59,143 nucleotides of DNA from Treponema sp. (GCA_031279205.1 JAITIX010000100.1:1-59143); one strand, 5' to 3'. Numbered from the stretch's first letter, positions 275 to 7,361 are shown. The notes: a model not told the origin generated them from the letters alone. Numbers and translations are program-made.

Positions 275-1750
275 TCATAGAACTGAATCGGCTTTAAGCC
301 GTTCAACTATTTTACGTACCAATAGCTCCACCGTATCATCGCTTATCCCCGTATTACGAGGAGGAGCGGGAATCCCCTGCGGCCTTATATCTTCCAGTTC
401 CTTTATACCATAGGCGATCCGGCGGATATTAATGAGGTGCAGGGGGCTGATATTATCGGAACTCGCGTTTCCACCCACCGCCCCGCAGCCGAGGGTAAGG
501 GACGGAACCAGGGTGCTTGTCGCGCCGATACCCGCAAGGGCTGCAGGAGAATTGACAATTAACCGCGATACGGGTTTCTTGAGGCCGAATTCCCGGATAA
601 CCTTTTCATCCCTGGAATGGATGCTCATCGTATGCCCGGCGCCTTCGGCCTTTAGAATTTCGATACACCGTTCACAGGCCCTCTCCCAGTTGTCCTCAAC
701 GTAAAAACCCAAGACCGGCATCAGTTTTTCTTTCGAATAGGGGTATTTAGGACCTACCCTGGTTTCTTCGCCCAGCAATACCCGGGTTCCTTTGGGAATA
801 CCGATCCCCGCGGCTTTTGCGATAAATTCCGCGGACCGTCCCACAAGCCGGGCATTCATCGTACCGCCGGGCCCCATGAGTATTTTTTCCACCCTTTCGG
901 AATCCCCCGGAGGGAGAAAATATCCGCCCTGTTTTTGTATTTCTTTCATTACGTCATTACGGATACACTGCTCCGTAATGATTGATTGTTCGGATGCACA
1001 GATCGTACCATTATCAAATGTCTTTGAATCAAAGATCCGTTTTACCGCTAAGGGAATATCGGCGCTCCGCTCAATAAAGGACGGACCGTTGCCGGGACCG
1101 ACCCCTATCGCGGGATTGCCCGAACTATAAGCCGCCTGCACCATCGCGTTTCCGCCTGTGGCAAGGATAAGGGCGATGTTTTTATGTCGCATCAAGGCAT
1201 CAGTCGCCTCTTTCGTCGGAGTGGGAAGGACGCTGACCAGATCCGGGGAAGCGCCCGACCGCTCAAGCGCGGCACGGATACAATGTACGGTTGTGCTTAT
1301 CGCGTTTTTCGCGCCAGGATGGGGTGAAAACACAATAGCGCATCCCGCTTTAAGGGCGATAAGGGACTTAAAAATCGTGGTGGAGGTCGGATTTGTGGAT
1401 GGGATAAGACCCGCCACAACACCAACCGGTACGCCTACCTCAACGAGCCCCCCCGCCTTGTTTTCATTGATAATACCTACGGTTTTGATATTCTTGATAT
1501 ACTCATACACATTTTTGGATGCAAAAAGATTTTTTAATATCTTATCCTCCCATTTGCCAAATCCGGTTTCCTCATTGGCCAATTTTGCAAGAGGTTCCGC
1601 TTCCGCCGCCACCGCTTCGGCAACCGCCGCTACTACCCGGTCAACGGCGGCTTGATCGTATTCTTTGTATACATTTTGCGCCTTTACCGCAAGACTCACC
1701 AGATCCCGAGCCTCTTGCACGGAAATAAGATCAATATCATGCAATTCCAT
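275..1750 (-). CDS. eutE: CoA-acylating acetaldehyde dehydrogenase (EutE/PduP family)
   Basis: About 491 aa counted from ATG 1750, which has a GGGGAG RBS (the track ORF starts at the upstream TTG 1768). It has an aldehyde-dehydrogenase fold throughout and sits between shell-protein genes in a eut locus. Confidence 0.85.
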   Translation of the reverse strand: MELHDIDLISVQEARDLVSLAVKAQNVYKEYDQAAVDRVVAAVAEAVAAEAEPLAKLANEETGFGKWEDKILKNLFASKNVYEYIKNIKTVGIINENKAGGLVEVGVPVGVVAGLIPSTNPTSTTIFKSLIALKAGCAIVFSPHPGAKNAISTTVHCIRAALERSGASPDLVSVLPTPTKEATDALMRHKNIALILATGGNAMVQAAYSSGNPAIGVGPGNGPSFIERSADIPLAVKRIFDSKTFDNGTICASEQSIITEQCIRNDVMKEIQKQGGYFLPPGDSERVEKILMGPGGTMNARLVGRSAEFIAKAAGIGIPKGTRVLLGEETRVGPKYPYSKEKLMPVLGFYVEDNWERACERCIEILKAEGAGHTMSIHSRDEKVIREFGLKKPVSRLIVNSPAALAGIGATSTLVPSLTLGCGAVGGNASSDNISPLHLINIRRIAYGIKELEDIRPQGIPAPPRNTGISDDTVELLVRKIVERLKADSVL

Positions 1751-1786
1751 TACTATTCTCCCCAACAAGGCTAATCAACATAAAGT

Positions 1787-2446
1787 TCAACCCTTTGGTT
1801 TTGGGTTTCGCTTCCGCGGCTTATTCTCTGGCGAACTGCTGCCGCTTTTTTTCTTCGGCAGGGGAATCTCCTGTTCGGGCATGGGGGTTTCATCGGGAAA
1901 AAGCATTTTCCGTTCCCCCTGCCCTTCTTCTCCGCCGTTTTTATCAACGGTCCCGTTTTCCATTGAGGCCGAACCAACCGCCTCAGCCGCAGCAGGCTCC
2001 GGCATCGAAGTCTCGGTCTGAATGGGGGCTTTCGCCGGAACAGGGCGCTCCGTTTGAACGACGGGATCTGCCGGAGTTGACGGCTTAACCGCCGTATCTC
2101 CGGCAGATCCCGGCTTCATCGGAACGGAGGGCTTTCGCCGCGGCAAAAGCTCTCTGCCATTTGTTTGATCCATAATGAGGGGCCACACAGCTTCCGCCAG
2201 ACAAGGAATAAGCAGAGTCTGCCCAACCGCTCCCATACGGTCAATAGTTGCCTTTGCGGCATCAAGGGCAGCGCGCAACGCTCCCACATCACCCACCAGC
2301 GTTACCGTATTCAAACCTCCACCAACAAAGTAGGTCATTTTGAGCGTAACCGCCGCGGCTTTTATAGCGCTGTCAACTGCTTCAATAAGAGGAACGCGAC
2401 CCGCGGTTTCAATAATACCGAGCGCATGGTTTGCACCTGCTTTCAA
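1787..2446 (-). CDS. BMC-domain shell protein with a roughly 125-aa Pro/Glu/Lys-rich C-terminal tail (in the EutK-like position)
   Basis: The N-terminal ~90 aa (KAGANHALGIIETAGRVPLIEAVDSAIKAAAVTLKMTYFVGGGLNTVTLVGDVGALRAALDAAKATI) are a BMC domain. The rest is low-complexity and ends in the basic KKKSGSSSPENKPRKRNPKPKG. The start is TTG at 2446 with GGGGG 8 nt upstream. Confidence 0.7.
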   Translation of the reverse strand: MKAGANHALGIIETAGRVPLIEAVDSAIKAAAVTLKMTYFVGGGLNTVTLVGDVGALRAALDAAKATIDRMGAVGQTLLIPCLAEAVWPLIMDQTNGRELLPRRKPSVPMKPGSAGDTAVKPSTPADPVVQTERPVPAKAPIQTETSMPEPAAAEAVGSASMENGTVDKNGGEEGQGERKMLFPDETPMPEQEIPLPKKKSGSSSPENKPRKRNPKPKG

Positions 2447-2475
2447 CGCTTTACCCCCATCTCGTTACCAAAAAA

Positions 2476-3132
2476 CTAAAACGAGAGAGGATTTTCAGCG
2501 ACGAATTTTACCGCCTCCCCAAAGGCGTCACAGGCAGCTTTACATGCCGATTGGCTGCCTGTAAGCAATCCGCCGCCAAAGTTTGTTTCCGATGGAGGAC
2601 CATAAAACGCAGCGAGTTTCACGTCTGCGGCTTTTAACGCCGCATCCAGGGCATACATCGCCTCCAAGGGCGGGGCGATAAGATAGGACAAGGCAGCCCC
2701 TTCTTCCACTCCCGCTATCTTCGAGAGATAACTCCCGGTACGGGAAATACAATGAGCGTAATAAGGGATCGTGTTGTCATCGTTAGCCGATATAAACCAC
2801 GCTTCCTCAGTAACAAACTGGCAAATTACATTCAGGCCACTCCGCACTTCCGCAGGATTCGGCCCGGCGATAATACCAAGAATTTCACCGGCCAGTTTTG
2901 TATTGGCGTTTGCGGAACCGCCGTAAAAGGATCGCGCATAGACGACTTCTACATCGGCCTTTTTGGTCGCTTCATCAAGCGCCGTGTAGGTTACATCGTC
3001 GATGTCCGCCGTAACAAGCCCCAAACTTTTTTGTCCGGGCTTTAGTTTATAGCTTTCTATCAAGTCCGCACTTATATTCGGAATGATTTTTACCGCCAGT
3101 ATTGACGCTTTTAAGGGATCGTTTTTAGCCAT
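2476..3132 (-). CDS. eutL: EutL, tandem-BMC-domain (BMC-T) shell protein
   Basis: 218 aa, the typical EutL length and sequence pattern (MAKNDPLKASILAVKIIPNISADL...GLVTADIDDVTYTALDEATK...). It lies directly downstream of eutC as in canonical eut operons. Confidence 0.85.
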   Translation of the reverse strand: MAKNDPLKASILAVKIIPNISADLIESYKLKPGQKSLGLVTADIDDVTYTALDEATKKADVEVVYARSFYGGSANANTKLAGEILGIIAGPNPAEVRSGLNVICQFVTEEAWFISANDDNTIPYYAHCISRTGSYLSKIAGVEEGAALSYLIAPPLEAMYALDAALKAADVKLAAFYGPPSETNFGGGLLTGSQSACKAACDAFGEAVKFVAENPLSF

Positions 3133-3153
3133 AGTGTTTACCTCGCTTCTCCT

Positions 3154-4044
3154 TTAGAGTTTAAGATCAAGACCGCTTGCCTTATGATCAAGCATTTTCT
3201 TTATAATATCCGCAATATAACCGCCCGCTTCAACCGCCGGGGTCCCGCCTTTATGAATGTTGGAAACCACGGTCCGCCGCGCTTCGGGCATATTCATCGT
3301 CGCCTTGTACGCCATATACGCGGACATGCTTTCCGCCGTGATAAGTCCCGGACGCTCTCCGATAAGCGTAACGATTACTTCGGCGCCGGCGGCTTCCGAT
3401 ATCGCATCTTCAGCGCCAACACGCCCATACTGTACAAAAAACGGAGATGCTGGTTTTATATTGTAACGCTGCAAACCGTCACAGATAGCCTTAAAGGTAT
3501 CAATCGCGTTTGTCGTTACTGCAGTAGTTGAAAGCCCGTCGGCAATATAAATGACCACCCGGCTGTTCCCGCCAACATGATTTTTTATTTTTTGCAGTTC
3601 TTCGGCCTCAAACAACCGGCCCAAATCGGGACGAGTAAGATAGGTGTCTTTACTATCGCACCGGGTCTTAAAACGGGGCAAATTGTTTTGTTTGATCCAG
3701 TCATCCGATACATCGGTAAAAACAGCATCCATGGCTGCTGCGTGATCCGCCCGGAAACGCAGCAGGGTTTCCGTCAGGTACCGGGGGCCGGCTCGCCAGA
3801 CCCCGATACGGGCCGGCGTGGATTGCTTTAAGGTCTTCAAGGCATCAAGGTTATGCGGATTAGGCACATTGATAACACTTCTCAGATCAACGGCGGCCAG
3901 ATCAGGCAATACCCCGTCCAGATTCACCCCTACCGAACCGGCTGACCCGGAATGGTCGGAGTTGGCTAAGGCTTGAGCACCCCCCCCGCCCATTTCCATT
4001 AAAATCGACTCCACGGCTTTGCGCAATTCTTGTTCTGTAACCAT
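3154..4044 (-). CDS. eutC: Ethanolamine ammonia-lyase small subunit EutC
   Basis: 296 aa. The N-terminal amphipathic helix (MVTEQELRKAVESILMEMGG) resembles a BMC encapsulation peptide. The C-terminal core is EutC-like and the gene follows eutB. Confidence 0.85.
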   Translation of the reverse strand: MVTEQELRKAVESILMEMGGGGAQALANSDHSGSAGSVGVNLDGVLPDLAAVDLRSVINVPNPHNLDALKTLKQSTPARIGVWRAGPRYLTETLLRFRADHAAAMDAVFTDVSDDWIKQNNLPRFKTRCDSKDTYLTRPDLGRLFEAEELQKIKNHVGGNSRVVIYIADGLSTTAVTTNAIDTFKAICDGLQRYNIKPASPFFVQYGRVGAEDAISEAAGAEVIVTLIGERPGLITAESMSAYMAYKATMNMPEARRTVVSNIHKGGTPAVEAGGYIADIIKKMLDHKASGLDLKL

Positions 4045-4113
4045 AAAATTTATACCTCCTGAAAACCCATGTTCACTTCCTGTAAAGTGGTTATATTGTA
4101 AACAAAAAGTTTA

Positions 4114-5478
4114 TCAATAAAACATAGAAACATCTCCCGCTTTTTCCGTCAGACGGCCATTCTGATCCATCAGATCATGTTTGACCATCCATGCGAAAAA
4201 TTCCGGAGCCGGTTTTAACCCCAACAACTCACGCAGGGTAGCGTCGTCATGATAACTGGTATCCTGATAAGCCAGCATAACATCATCGCCTACCGGTACG
4301 CCCATAAAATAATTGGCCCCCGCCATCGTTAACAACATGGTGGCCATCTCCTGATCATCCTGATTGATCTTGGTATGGTTGGTGTAGCAAGGAGCCATCC
4401 CCATAGGTATCCCCAATAGTTTTCCCATGAAATGATCCTCCAGGCTGGCACGGATGATCTGCCGGCCATCGTAGAGGGTTTCCGGTCCGATAAAGCCCGA
4501 CACATTGTTGAGCATAAAAGGTCTAAATATCCGGGCATAACCGTAACACCGCGCTTCCAGCGTCATAAGGTCCACCCCGCGGTCCGCATTAATTGATTGC
4601 TCTGACCCCTGACCGGTCTCAAAGTACAAAAGATTGGGCCCCGGCGCCTGCCCTTTTTTGTGGATCATATCGTAGGCTTCATGGAGCAAGTTTGTGGATA
4701 CTCCAAAGGCCAGATTTGCCTCCTCGGTTCCGGCGATACTTTGAAAGAAGGCGCAACAGGGAGCGCCATTTTCTACGGCGGCCATTTGGGTGGTAATATG
4801 GGACAGGACGCAGTTCTGAGTCGGCAGTCCCCATTTTTGCATAAAATCCCAGGTAGCCTGCAATATCGTCTTGGTGTTATCCTCCGTATCTTCTACCGGA
4901 TTAACCCCCAAAACCGCATCGCCGCTGCCGTAGGAAACGCCTTCGGCCAAGGACGCCAGAATCCCCTCTATGTTGTCGCTGGGGTGATTCGGCTGATTAC
5001 GGAAAGACAGGGTATCCGGCAAACCGATGGTGGTGGCGCAAGTAGCGGTTATCTTGATTTTGGAAGCGGCATAGACCAAATCCATAGCCGTCATCAATTT
5101 GGCCGCAGCCGCAGCAACCTCAGCCTGAATACCCCGGCTCAATCTGAGGATGTCTTCGCTGGAAGTCTCATGCTTCAAAATCCATTCCCGCAGTTCACCG
5201 ATGGTCCAGTTTTTGATTCTCTCATAAATAGAAATGTTAAGGTCCTCCAGAAGAACACGAGAAACTTCATCGGTCTCAGGCGGCAGCAAGGGGTTTTCGT
5301 AGAAGTCCGCCAGGGTCAACCGGGACAAAACCAGCTTGGCCGCGGTACGTTCGCTGACCGTTTCGGCGGCCCGGCCCAGAAGGACATCACCGGACTTTTC
5401 GTCATTGGCCTTTGCCATAACATCGGTGAGACTTTTGAAAGAATAAACTTGACCGCCTAAAATAGTCTTTAATACCAT
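4114..5478 (-). CDS. eutB: Ethanolamine ammonia-lyase large subunit, divergent paralog (copy 2, adjacent to eutC)
   Basis: 454 aa, collinear with EutB over its full length, with the YFETGQGSE, GFIGPE, EDHFMGK and CYTNH motifs. By manual count about half of the first 100 residues match the neighbouring copy. Confidence 0.85.
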   Translation of the reverse strand: MVLKTILGGQVYSFKSLTDVMAKANDEKSGDVLLGRAAETVSERTAAKLVLSRLTLADFYENPLLPPETDEVSRVLLEDLNISIYERIKNWTIGELREWILKHETSSEDILRLSRGIQAEVAAAAAKLMTAMDLVYAASKIKITATCATTIGLPDTLSFRNQPNHPSDNIEGILASLAEGVSYGSGDAVLGVNPVEDTEDNTKTILQATWDFMQKWGLPTQNCVLSHITTQMAAVENGAPCCAFFQSIAGTEEANLAFGVSTNLLHEAYDMIHKKGQAPGPNLLYFETGQGSEQSINADRGVDLMTLEARCYGYARIFRPFMLNNVSGFIGPETLYDGRQIIRASLEDHFMGKLLGIPMGMAPCYTNHTKINQDDQEMATMLLTMAGANYFMGVPVGDDVMLAYQDTSYHDDATLRELLGLKPAPEFFAWMVKHDLMDQNGRLTEKAGDVSMFY

Positions 5479-5496: not shown

Positions 5497-6858
5497 TCAA
5501 ACAAATACGGACATATCACCGGCGCGGGAGGTTAAGCGGCCGTTTTCCCACAAACCCATCTTTTCAAGCCATGCGGCAAATTCGGGAATTGGAGAAAGCC
5601 CCAGCAACTGCCGTAACGAAGGGGCGTCATGGTAACTGGTACACTGGTAGTTGAGCATAACATCGTCCCCGTGAGGGATGCCCATAAAATAATTGCATCC
5701 CGCGGCGCTCAACAGTATTGCCAGATTTTCGACATCGTTTTGATCGGCTTTTGCATGGTTTGTATAACAAGCATCGCAGCCCATCGAAATACCGGTCAGT
5801 TTACCCATAAAATGATCTTCAAGCCCGGCGCGGATTATCTGCTTGGAGTCATAAAGGTATTCGGGACCGATAAACCCGACAACCGTATTGACCAGGAAAG
5901 GGCTGTACCGCTTCGCAAAACCGTAACACCGCGCCTCCATTACCACCTGATCGGCGCCAAAGTGAGCGTCCGATGAAAGCTCGGAACCCTGACCGGTCTC
6001 AAAATACATAACATTCGGACCGGTAGCGGTACCCGCATGAAGCATCAGGTCCCGAGCCTCGTCCATAAGGGCCATCGTAATACCGAAGGCTTCATTTCCC
6101 TTCTGGCTCCCCGCGATGCTCTGGAAGCAAAGGTCTGCGGGAGCCCCCTTGCGTATCGCTTCCATTTGGGCGGTCACATGAGCAAGAACACAGATCTGGG
6201 TCGGTATGCCAAGGCGGTGTTTTATTTCATTAAAACGCTCAAGGACCGCTTTGGCGTTGTCGGCGGTACCTTCAACAGGGTTAAGCCCGATAACCGCGTC
6301 TCCGCATCCGTAGGAGAGTCCTTCGTACACGGAAGCGGTAATCCCATCAAGATTATCTGTCGGATCGTTTGGCTGTAAACGGATAGCGAGGGTCCCTTTT
6401 TTACCTATAGTTGTGTTGCAATGGGCGGTAACCCGTGCTTTGCTTGCCGCGTAAATCAGATCCATATTGGTCATGAGCTTCGCCGCCCCAGCAATGACTT
6501 CTGCAGTAAGCCCACGGCTTACCCGCCGGATCGACTCATTGGTTGCGGCATCTGAAAGAAGCCATTCTCGAAATTCCGCCATGCTCCAATTCCGAATCTC
6601 GGCATAAATTGATTCATTTATCGCATCCTGGATGATCCGGGTAACCTCGTCATCCTCATAGGGAACCACAGGATTTTCTCGCAGATCCGAAATTTTTAAA
6701 TTGGCCAAGACCTGTTTTGCAGCAACCCGTTCCGCCATGTTTGCCGCAGCCACACCTGCCAGATGATCCCCGGAGCGATCTTCATTCGCCTTTGCAAGGA
6801 CATCTTTGACGTCTTTAAACTGATACACCGTATCAAACAATTTGGTTTTCAGTATCAC
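5497..6858 (-). CDS. eutB: Ethanolamine ammonia-lyase large subunit (copy 1, closer to canonical EutB)
   Basis: 453 aa. MILKTKLFDTVYQFKDVKDVLAKANEDRSGDHLAGVAAA... closely follows the enterobacterial EutB sequence as I recall it. The start is GTG at 6858 with an AAGGGGG RBS. Confidence 0.9.
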   Translation of the reverse strand: MILKTKLFDTVYQFKDVKDVLAKANEDRSGDHLAGVAAANMAERVAAKQVLANLKISDLRENPVVPYEDDEVTRIIQDAINESIYAEIRNWSMAEFREWLLSDAATNESIRRVSRGLTAEVIAGAAKLMTNMDLIYAASKARVTAHCNTTIGKKGTLAIRLQPNDPTDNLDGITASVYEGLSYGCGDAVIGLNPVEGTADNAKAVLERFNEIKHRLGIPTQICVLAHVTAQMEAIRKGAPADLCFQSIAGSQKGNEAFGITMALMDEARDLMLHAGTATGPNVMYFETGQGSELSSDAHFGADQVVMEARCYGFAKRYSPFLVNTVVGFIGPEYLYDSKQIIRAGLEDHFMGKLTGISMGCDACYTNHAKADQNDVENLAILLSAAGCNYFMGIPHGDDVMLNYQCTSYHDAPSLRQLLGLSPIPEFAAWLEKMGLWENGRLTSRAGDMSVFV

Positions 6859-6986
6859 GGAATCTACCCCCTTCGCACTTAGAGTTGTAGTATATAAACT
6901 TACCCCGTGATCTCATAAACATCGATGACGGGTTCATAAGCCTATAACAATCACCTCTATCCGCGTAGAGTTTATCCATGATGTTA

Positions 6987-7074
6987 TTACAAAATAGTTT
7001 TCTGACTTAAAGGATTTCTCCCTTTACAGTGGCGGGACCGTTCAGGTTGTTCGCCTGATTGCCATATTTTGTAA
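6987..7074 (-). promoter_or_regulatory. Cobalamin (B12) riboswitch-like aptamer in the eutB leader
   Basis: Minus-strand RNA: UUACAAAAUAUGGCAAUCAGGCGAACAACCUGAACGGUCCCGCCACUGUAAAGGGAGAAAUCCUUUAAGUCAGAAAACUAUUUUGUAA. It has a CAGG-N7-CCUG hairpin, the conserved GGUCCCGCCACUGUAA core, a small hairpin and a B12-box-like AAGUCAG. A perfect 10-bp helix closes the element. Confidence 0.65.
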
Positions 7075-7100
7075 CCCTTATCTTAGTATATTCTCCTACT

Positions 7101-7150
7101 CAAGTCCACTATTAATAATCAACAACAAGTCCACTATTAATAATCAACAA
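7101..7150. repeat. Perfect tandem direct repeat, 2 x 25 bp (CAAGTCCACTATTAATAATCAACAA), in the divergent eut control region
   Basis: 7101-7125 and 7126-7150 are identical when read directly from the sequence. The repeat lies between the minus-strand eutB unit and the plus-strand eutS unit. Confidence 0.95.
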
Positions 7151-7361
7151 TAAATGATAACACGGGAAATACCAGTTGTCAAGGGAAATTTTTTGTTGAT
7201 TCCCCTCTGTGATTTTACGTGAGGCGGGGCATTGACTCCTCATTACTTTGGGATATACACTTACTTATCAGGGTTTTTTCACCGTTTTTTCAAAATTCGA
7301 TAAAAAAAGCTCTAACCACACAATACTATTGAGCGCCCCTTGATAAACAAAGGAGTTGGTA

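Follow-up and report, generated by a model that had tools for sequence, protein, structure and literature searches.

What use could a cobalamin riboswitch have in the leader of an operon whose enzyme needs the riboswitch's own ligand? The question is raised by a stretch of 59,143 nt from Treponema sp. (GCA_031279205.1 JAITIX010000100.1:1-59143; hereafter, the window), in which a preliminary description had placed a compact, cobalamin-riboswitch-like aptamer at positions 6987 to 7074 of the minus strand, in the leader of eutB, the first gene of an ethanolamine (eut) operon. B12 is so far known to bear on eut expression in only one way, through a small RNA that acts in trans as a sponge for a two-component regulator. 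From the conserved features of this leader and its modeled folds, we consider it probable that the element switches on the translation of eutB in cis, in that adenosylcobalamin (AdoCbl) would free the ribosome-binding site (RBS). The aptamer is of an already known kind; what is predicted to be new here is the expression platform, the regulatory logic, and the host phyla.

The identity of the aptamer is the simplest part of the question. In an Rfam scan of the whole 59-kb window, RF01482 (the AdoCbl riboswitch aptamer, cobalamin class IIb) matches positions 7089 to 6945 of the minus strand with 57.5 bits (E 5.7e-8; gathering score, 50 bits), the match spans model positions 1 to 149 of 149, and it is the sole Rfam hit above gathering score in the window. 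RF01482 is also the best-scoring member of its clan for this element, and the score, the core sequence, the helices, and the association with eut genes all agree with membership in the family. The cobalamin core (GGUCCCGCCACUGU ... AAGUCAG) is kept, and P6 is short and without peripheral extension: the large P6 extension between GCCACUG and the B12 box that characterizes class I (RF00174) is absent, a 17-nt hairpin standing in its place, and the spacing from ACUGU to AAGUCAG (17 nt) equals the RF01482 family consensus. Judged by sequence and structure, the element is a genuine compact class IIb-type cobalamin riboswitch. A review describes class IIb as eut associated and highly AdoCbl selective, a statement that concerns Firmicute members (PMC11477304), and the window element would be expected to bind AdoCbl as well.

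The covariance model therefore bears out the aptamer proposed in the preliminary description, every motif of which is found in its place on the minus strand; its view that the missing peripheral extension is unusual does not hold, since the absence of that extension defines the known class II/IIb family (PMC11477304). The 88-nt extent given there was also too short. As delimited by sequence and covariation, positions 6987 to 7074 make up the aptamer core closed by P1, whereas the covariance model assigns 6945 to 7089 (minus strand) to the full element, aptamer plus P13, such that the functional unit reaches to about 6945 to 6950 and a hairpin, P13 (6982 to 6950), had been left out. Within the core, P1 pairs UUACAAAAUA (7074 to 7065) with UAUUUUGUAA (6996 to 6987) over 10 bp and encloses the P3/4 hairpin CAGG-CGAACAA-CCUG (7057 to 7043), P5/L5 with the GCCACUG core (GGUCCCGCCACUGUAA, 7039 to 7024), the short AAAGG/CCUUU hairpin P6 (7025 to 7009), and AAGUCAGAAAAC (7008 to 6997), all on the minus strand. 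The distance of about 125 nt proposed between the end of the core and eutB is accurate: the GUG start lies at 6858, 128 nt after 6987.

Related leaders indicate that both this structure and its position are maintained. EutB homologues with 80 to 94% identity occur in genome bins of Treponema, Elusimicrobiota, Desulfovibrio, and Adiutrix, and 17 related loci fetched around such homologues were compared. The element lies directly 5′ of eutB, in the same orientation, in the window, L121, L122/L123 (Treponema bin), L124, and L125/L126 (Elusimicrobiota bins); with the near-identical copies L125 and L126 counted as one, the distinct riboswitch-bearing leaders upstream of eutB number five. The proposed cis position thus recurs in five lineages irrespective of the upstream gene, which may be a divergent bacterial microcompartment (BMC)-eutP-pta set, Cas9, or OprB. 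In L124, from an Elusimicrobiota bin, a type II CRISPR-Cas locus (307 to 5059; Cas9-like protein of 1177 aa, Cas1, and Cas2) adjoins the eutB riboswitch upstream, which argues that the riboswitch travels with eutB and not with its upstream neighbor. The element was not found at L127 to L130, L178 to L181, L183, or L184, all of which carry relatives of this EutB, and it is therefore not universal in the EutB clade.

Scores against the general Rfam models vary among these leaders: L125/L126 match RF01482 with 56 to 57 bits, L122 (49.1 bits) and L124 (39.4 bits) fall below its gathering score, and L121 (27.9 bits) matches RF00174 better than RF01482, as does a further Treponema locus, L062 (34.5 bits). 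A subclass covariance model (R1) built from seven related sequences scores these seven at 107 to 137 bits, as is expected of the sequences from which it was built, and every other compact cobalamin riboswitch among 184 loci at ≤70 bits; in the window it finds a single copy, at 6946 to 7078, with 137.5 bits. In a model-fitted alignment of the seven leaders, a procedure that inflates the count, 96.8% of the structure cells are base paired, with compensatory changes in 17 of 31 pairs; none of 500 shuffles did as well, and slid controls were 34 to 45% paired. (A MAFFT alignment of the leaders, in which P1 of L125, L126, and L062 lay one column out of register, was set aside.) Compensatory changes affect 8 of the 11 pairs of P1, and some are found in each of P3/4, P5, and P6, while the core nucleotides are invariant across the Treponema and Elusimicrobiota leaders.

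The regulatory question turns on the hairpin that follows the aptamer. P13, AUCAU-GGAUAAA-CUCUA-[CGCGGA]-UAGAG-GUGAU (6950 to 6982, minus strand), is 100% paired and consists of a 5′ arm (6982 to 6966; AUCAYGGA...CUCU in the leaders), a loop, L13 (6965 to 6960), that is similar in sequence to the (A/U)CGNG..GAU loops found in other compact cobalamin riboswitches and is presumed to be the kissing-loop partner of L5, and a 3′ arm (6959 to 6950) that mimics a Shine-Dalgarno sequence followed by GUGAU. Its inner stem is conserved by replacement, CUCUA/UAGAG giving way to CUUCA/UGAAG in L125/L126, and its outer stem is rebuilt with other letters in L121, again in compensatory fashion. The 5′ arm appears to double as an anti-RBS sequence. 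Its pairing target is the eutB RBS (6854 to 6873, minus strand), which comprises the Shine-Dalgarno sequence AAGGGGGU (6873 to 6866) and UCCGUGAU (6861 to 6854), the latter holding the GUG start (6858 to 6856). When the five distinct riboswitch-bearing leaders are folded without constraints, the minimum-free-energy structure of each retains the aptamer and joins the P13 5′ arm to the eutB RBS: AUCAYGGA pairs with UCCGUGAU (-5 to +5 around GUG), and CUCU pairs with the GGAG or GGGG of the Shine-Dalgarno sequence.

This alternative helix is stronger than the composition of the arm predicts. The arm:RBS duplexes reach -12.7 to -16.4 kcal/mol, versus -5.4 to -7.0 kcal/mol for shuffled arms (-15.2 versus -7.0 ± 2.1 kcal/mol in the window), and the fraction of shuffled arms that do as well is ≤0.0065 in each of seven leaders, the divergent L121 included. 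The helix also covaries, with GG/CC changing to AA/UU in L124 (AUCACAAAAG with CUUUUGUGAU), a GC-to-AU change in two pairs, and GA/UC found in L182 (AUCACGAAA with UUUCGUGAU). Because P13 and the arm:RBS helix both need the same AUCAC, they are mutually exclusive. Moreover, a noncoding GUGAU directly after UAGAG is kept in five of six lineages and, being a copy of the GUGAU at the start codon, is best read as a decoy for it. When P13 is held closed, the predicted ensemble cost of opening the RBS falls by 6 to 8 kcal/mol, from 12.5 to 14.9 kcal/mol to 5.3 to 8.6 kcal/mol across the five distinct leaders (14.9 kcal/mol free versus 8.6 kcal/mol with P13 held in the window). The leader can accordingly be modeled as the pair of mutually exclusive helices expected of a translational ON switch: the arm:RBS helix masks the Shine-Dalgarno sequence together with the start codon, and P13 would by homology be stabilized by the ligand.

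In the mechanism that we propose, an mRNA starting near 7147, at a TTGACA/TATCAT promoter, would carry the aptamer (7074 to 6987) and then P13 (6982 to 6950). Without AdoCbl, the P13 5′ arm (AUCAUGGA...CUCU) would pair with UCCGUGAU and the Shine-Dalgarno sequence, leaving the RBS buried and eutB untranslated; this OFF fold would be reinforced in the window, L121, and L124, where the UAGAG of the P13 3′ arm would be captured by a second CUCUA. With AdoCbl, the L5-L13 loop-loop contact would be promoted and would keep P13 closed, in which case the anti-RBS arm would be taken by its decoy partner UAGAGGUGAU, the RBS would open, and eutB would be translated. We infer both the ON outcome and, from homology with other cobalamin riboswitches, the stabilization of P13 by AdoCbl: in class II cobalamin riboswitches, it is the L5-L13 contact that is described as switching with the ligand (PMC6158498), and AdoCbl favors the final aptamer hairpin in Enterococcus faecalis (PMC5821096). 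The ON logic fits the biology, since the eut enzyme needs AdoCbl and a sister element precedes the operon of another AdoCbl enzyme.

The leader lacks the parts on which the characterized eut riboswitches rely. In EutX and Rli55, small RNAs of Firmicutes, AdoCbl makes transcription end at the final hairpin, and the RNA is thus left without the ANTAR dual hairpin that would otherwise sequester EutV (PMC5821096); the EutV binding site is a dual-hairpin motif with ANNGNN hexaloops (PMC3369931). Neither the window nor any of the 17 related loci yielded an ANTAR or EutW homologue in searches with Enterococcus mundtii EutV and EutW (from L054; tblastn), the sole match being the receiver domain of an unrelated CheY-like gene, and Pfam scans of the window and its relatives likewise detected no EutV or EutW, in agreement with the absence of eutVW from the window already proposed. 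The operons of L122 and L124, ordered eutB-C-L-(BMC)-E-M-J-N-H-Q-T-A, are without a regulator gene. The leader (7150 to 6840) has no ANNGNN hexaloop hairpins, and no intrinsic terminator separates the aptamer from eutB (7089 to 6858, minus strand), where P13 is followed by UGUUAUAGGC with no U-tract. A terminator/antiterminator model was rejected, as no terminator is present, and an ANTAR sponge model was rejected, as there is neither an ANTAR protein in the window or the 17 related loci nor an ANTAR-type hairpin in the leader. The preliminary description had reasoned that a riboswitch in this position must be either an ON switch or a decoy; the conserved expression platform supports the former, still as a prediction, and the latter finds no support, with no ANTAR-type hairpin in the leader and no ANTAR protein in the window or the 17 related loci.

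Several observations count against a cis-acting ON switch. Only five independent riboswitch-bearing lineages are available, and each switch helix has only two covarying positions. By nearest-neighbor energies, the RBS-sequestered fold is favored over full P13 by 8 to 13 kcal/mol, so that ligand and tertiary contacts, or cotranscriptional kinetics, must make up the difference. The AUCAYGGA:UCCGUGAU helix persists when only the inner P13 stem is held, and per-nucleotide accessibility of the Shine-Dalgarno sequence with P13 held does not increase throughout: it falls from 0.34 to 0.24 in the window and from 0.14 to 0.02 in L125, because local hairpins form. A second AUCACGG (6912 to 6903) can recapture the start codon in the window, the invariance of L5 leaves the L5-L13 pairing unconfirmed by covariation, and L182 keeps P13 and the anti-RBS sequence with no aptamer. 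Finally, the eut side of the window is visible for only about 7 kb, eutVW could lie elsewhere in the genome, and nothing in the window explains how ethanolamine is sensed.

How far do these points favor other explanations? The persistence of the AUCAYGGA:UCCGUGAU helix beside a closed inner stem, together with the retention of the arm:RBS helix in the aptamer-less L182, would suit a functional aptamer that acts at another level (Rho-dependent termination, RNase access, or mRNA stability) while the arm:RBS helix is constitutive, and Rho-dependent termination and RNA decay have been reported beside RBS occlusion for translational riboswitches (PMC6158498). We consider this unlikely: no terminator is present, such mechanisms usually follow translation control rather than replacing it, and the conserved noncoding GUGAU is explained only by competition with the start-codon GUGAU for AUCAC. 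A cis-acting OFF switch, in which AdoCbl-stabilized P13 would free the second CUCUA (6884 to 6880) to mask the Shine-Dalgarno sequence, or would otherwise lower expression so that eut is limited when B12 is plentiful, has precedent on its side, since the characterized cis-acting cobalamin riboswitches all repress (38 of 38 responsive riboswitches in a functional reporter survey [PMC9600662], and OFF in a review [PMC11477304]). The P13-forced folds of the window, L124, and L125 also place the Shine-Dalgarno sequence in a small local hairpin. Those hairpins, however, have four or five pairs and are not conserved, the second CUCUA is missing from L122 and L125, and the RBS becomes cheaper to open when P13 is held; the helix that sequesters the RBS, strong and covarying, is formed with the P13 arm, which makes the P13-open state the OFF state. 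Repression by its own cofactor would also make little sense for an enzyme that requires AdoCbl, and we judge this reading to be quite improbable.

That the aptamer arrived with a horizontally mobile eut cluster and now decays, regulating nothing, might be read from its absence beside close relatives of EutB (the 10 loci listed above), its loss from L182, and the scores of several relatives below the Rfam gathering score. A relic is nonetheless hard to reconcile with an invariant core, with helices kept by compensatory changes across Treponema and Elusimicrobiota, with the conservation of both platform helices, or with a window copy above the gathering score, and we regard it as very improbable. 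Lower still in probability, to a degree that makes it barely tenable, is a mechanism of the EutX/Rli55 kind, in which the riboswitch RNA would sponge the ANTAR regulator EutV in trans until AdoCbl-induced early termination removed the sponge. The aptamer is in the same Rfam family, this is the sole mechanism characterized for that family, and the left end of the eut operon lies beyond the window; but neither the 59 kb nor the complete-looking operons of relatives encode an ANTAR or EutW homologue, the leader has no ANNGNN hexaloop hairpin, P13 is followed by no U-tract or detected terminator, and the RNA continues into eutB, with a P13 arm complementary to the eutB RBS. Given the absence of EutV/EutW, ANTAR-binding hairpins, and a terminator, the sponge mechanism is not applicable to this leader.

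A cis-acting ON switch would combine features of several known systems. In the Vibrio vulnificus add adenine riboswitch, the ligand stabilizes one helix and so keeps a strand of it from joining a second helix that sequesters the RBS, the switching strand being in P1. The working principle would be the same here, although aptamer and ligand are unrelated, and here the strand would belong to the peripheral P13 and be held by a tertiary loop-loop contact. In Listeria, an OFF B12 riboswitch terminates the inhibitory antisense RNA AspocR, which produces an indirect ON logic for pdu. There, and by prediction here, a B12-dependent catabolic microcompartment operon is tied to B12 (the sister element at L062 precedes pdu), but the riboswitch here is in the mRNA leader itself. 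Env8-type switches have their RBS within P13/L13, and the kissing loop hides it, giving OFF. Class IIa (env8) has, like the window leader, a compact aptamer, a J1/13 linker, and a P13 loop that contacts L5 in a ligand-dependent manner to set ribosome access (PMC6158498); P13 here holds an anti-RBS and a decoy, however, so that the same contact would expose the RBS and give ON. EutX (Enterococcus faecalis) and Rli55 (Listeria monocytogenes) share with this leader the RF01482 family, a compact aptamer without P6 extension, the association with eut, a requirement for B12 in eut expression, and a final hairpin favored by AdoCbl (the last two predicted here). They differ in that their final hairpin is a terminator, their long form has an ANTAR dual hairpin, and they act in trans and occur in either orientation, whereas the window leader has no terminator, ANTAR site, or EutVW, and the 5′ arm of its hairpin is an anti-RBS for the adjacent eutB. 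Their hosts are Firmicutes; the hosts here are Spirochaetota and Elusimicrobiota. Searches of the accessible literature, which is incomplete, turned up neither a cis-acting cobalamin riboswitch with ON polarity nor any riboswitch immediately 5′ of eutB, and a prior description is possible.

The same subclass of aptamer and P13 occurs at L062 (Treponema sp. Pc512_bin50, from a termite; 1819 to 1945, R1 score of 121 bits), 230 nt upstream of pduA-pduB-pduCDE-pduG, the operon of a B12-dependent diol dehydratase microcompartment. The platform there is unlike that of eutB: L13 and the 3′ arm (CGCGCGAUA) have a perfect complement, UAUCGCGCG, about 45 nt downstream. Whether these leaders represent a protein-free, self-contained cis-acting cobalamin ON riboswitch for B12-dependent microcompartment operons (eut here and pdu in the sister Treponema), which in the Spirochaetota and Elusimicrobiota of the termite gut would stand in for the EutVW/EutX and PocR/AspocR circuits that Firmicutes use, is in our estimate an evenly balanced question. 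If the proposed switch is real, the L5-L13 contact can be wired for either polarity, and the eut-type aptamer also occurs outside Firmicutes and independently of EutVW. It would also offer a natural, compact (~220 nt), B12-inducible ON module usable as a tool, and would mean that the costly expression of a microcompartment is gated on a shared cofactor, which bears on corrinoid cross-feeding in the termite gut.

L182 retains the P13 part of the leader with no recognizable aptamer upstream. In this short eutBC-eutH-eutA locus without shell genes, P13 and the complementarity to the RBS described above lie at 5874 to 5946, and the RBS opening cost drops by only 2.2 kcal/mol with P13 held. The aptamer may have been deleted naturally from this locus, or the hairpin may serve some independent function.

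Wider scans recovered few comparable loci. A compact-core scan of genome contigs returned at least 120 loci, mostly unrelated compact cobalamin riboswitches (Streptomyces, Paenibacillus, and others); among the matches listed, 11 were eut linked (Streptococcus sanguinis, Enterococcus, and similar), all of the EutX type, and L062 was also among the matches listed. A scan of metagenome contigs with the subclass pattern returned 47 loci, none with eut genes and most belonging to another compact family upstream of lipoprotein/TonB genes. A separate family of compact cobalamin riboswitches (GTCCCGCTACYGT...AAGYCRGAAAAC...ATCATAAGAT) lies upstream of small open reading frames with lipoprotein-like N termini and was found on contigs L131, L134 to L137, L146, L148, L150, L151, L157, L159, L160, L162, L165, L167, L173, L175, and L177, several of which hold more than one copy.

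Upstream of the riboswitch, the likely promoter (7154 to 7182, minus strand; 11 of 12 consensus matches) consists of TTGACA (7182 to 7177), a 17-nt spacer, and a TG-extended -10 element, TGTTATCAT (7162 to 7154; TATCAT), from which transcription is likely to start near 7147. A TTGACA-17-TAnnnT promoter is also present 55 to 110 nt upstream of P1 in relatives. The hexamer TATACT (7090 to 7085), originally taken for the -10 element, has no usable -35 element at the right spacing and lies 65 nt downstream of this near-consensus promoter; because the promoter at 7182 to 7154 is far better and its layout is common to relatives, TATACT is probably not a -10 element. Between promoter and riboswitch, directly downstream of the -10 hexamer, lies a perfect tandem duplication of 2 × 25 nt (TTGTTGATTATTAATAGTGGACTTG; 7101 to 7150, minus strand, 100% matches), each unit of which has the palindromic core TATTAATA. 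No further copy of the 25-nt unit occurs in the window, where 0.01 would be expected by chance, and the duplication was not found in the leaders of relatives; it could be an operator pair, perhaps for a regulator that senses ethanolamine, or a recent slip duplication.

Between P13 and the RBS, folds place a variable spacer hairpin (6903 to 6932, minus strand) whose sequence is different in every relative. Its 3′ arm, GAUCACGGGG (6912 to 6903), is the second anti-start copy noted above, and no U-tract terminator follows the hairpin. The second CUCUA (6880 to 6884, minus strand) lies 7 to 9 nt upstream of the Shine-Dalgarno sequence and pairs with the UAGAG of the P13 3′ arm in the ligand-free minimum-free-energy fold, where it would serve as an anti-P13 element; AACUCUAA is found in L121 and L124 too but is missing from L122 and L125.

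The gene that follows, eutB copy 1 (5497 to 6858, minus strand), encodes 453 aa from its GUG start (PF06751, E 5e-217), and the gene calls of homologues share both its GUG start and its length. It opens a minus-strand unit ordered eutB-eutB-eutC-eutL-BMC-eutE that leaves the window at its left end, and a BMC shell gene, eutP, and pta lie divergent to it. No exact match to the EutL of this unit was found on record. The two eutB paralogues (4114 to 5478 and 5497 to 6858, minus strand) are 57% identical and accompany a single eutC. Such a tandem pair recurs in L121, L127, L130, and L178, and each copy is closer to its counterparts in other organisms than to its neighbor, so the duplication is old. 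The seryl-tRNA synthetase encoded in the window has 90% identity to those of termite-gut Treponema genome bins and "Hollandina" and 81% to that of Leadbettera azotonutricia, from which we take the host to be a termite-gut spirochete and not a Firmicute.

Two observations lie apart from the riboswitch. On the Desulfovibrio-like contigs L127 and L130, a few kilobases from their riboswitch-less eut loci, pyrrolysine insertion elements (PYLIS, RF02510) occur inside split mttB genes (1214 to 1316 and 2118 to 2220, respectively). In the window itself, a gene for a PD-(D/E)XK family transposase (PF12784; 47331 to 48437, minus strand) separates a sugar ABC transporter from an FeFe-hydrogenase/NuoF-like cluster.

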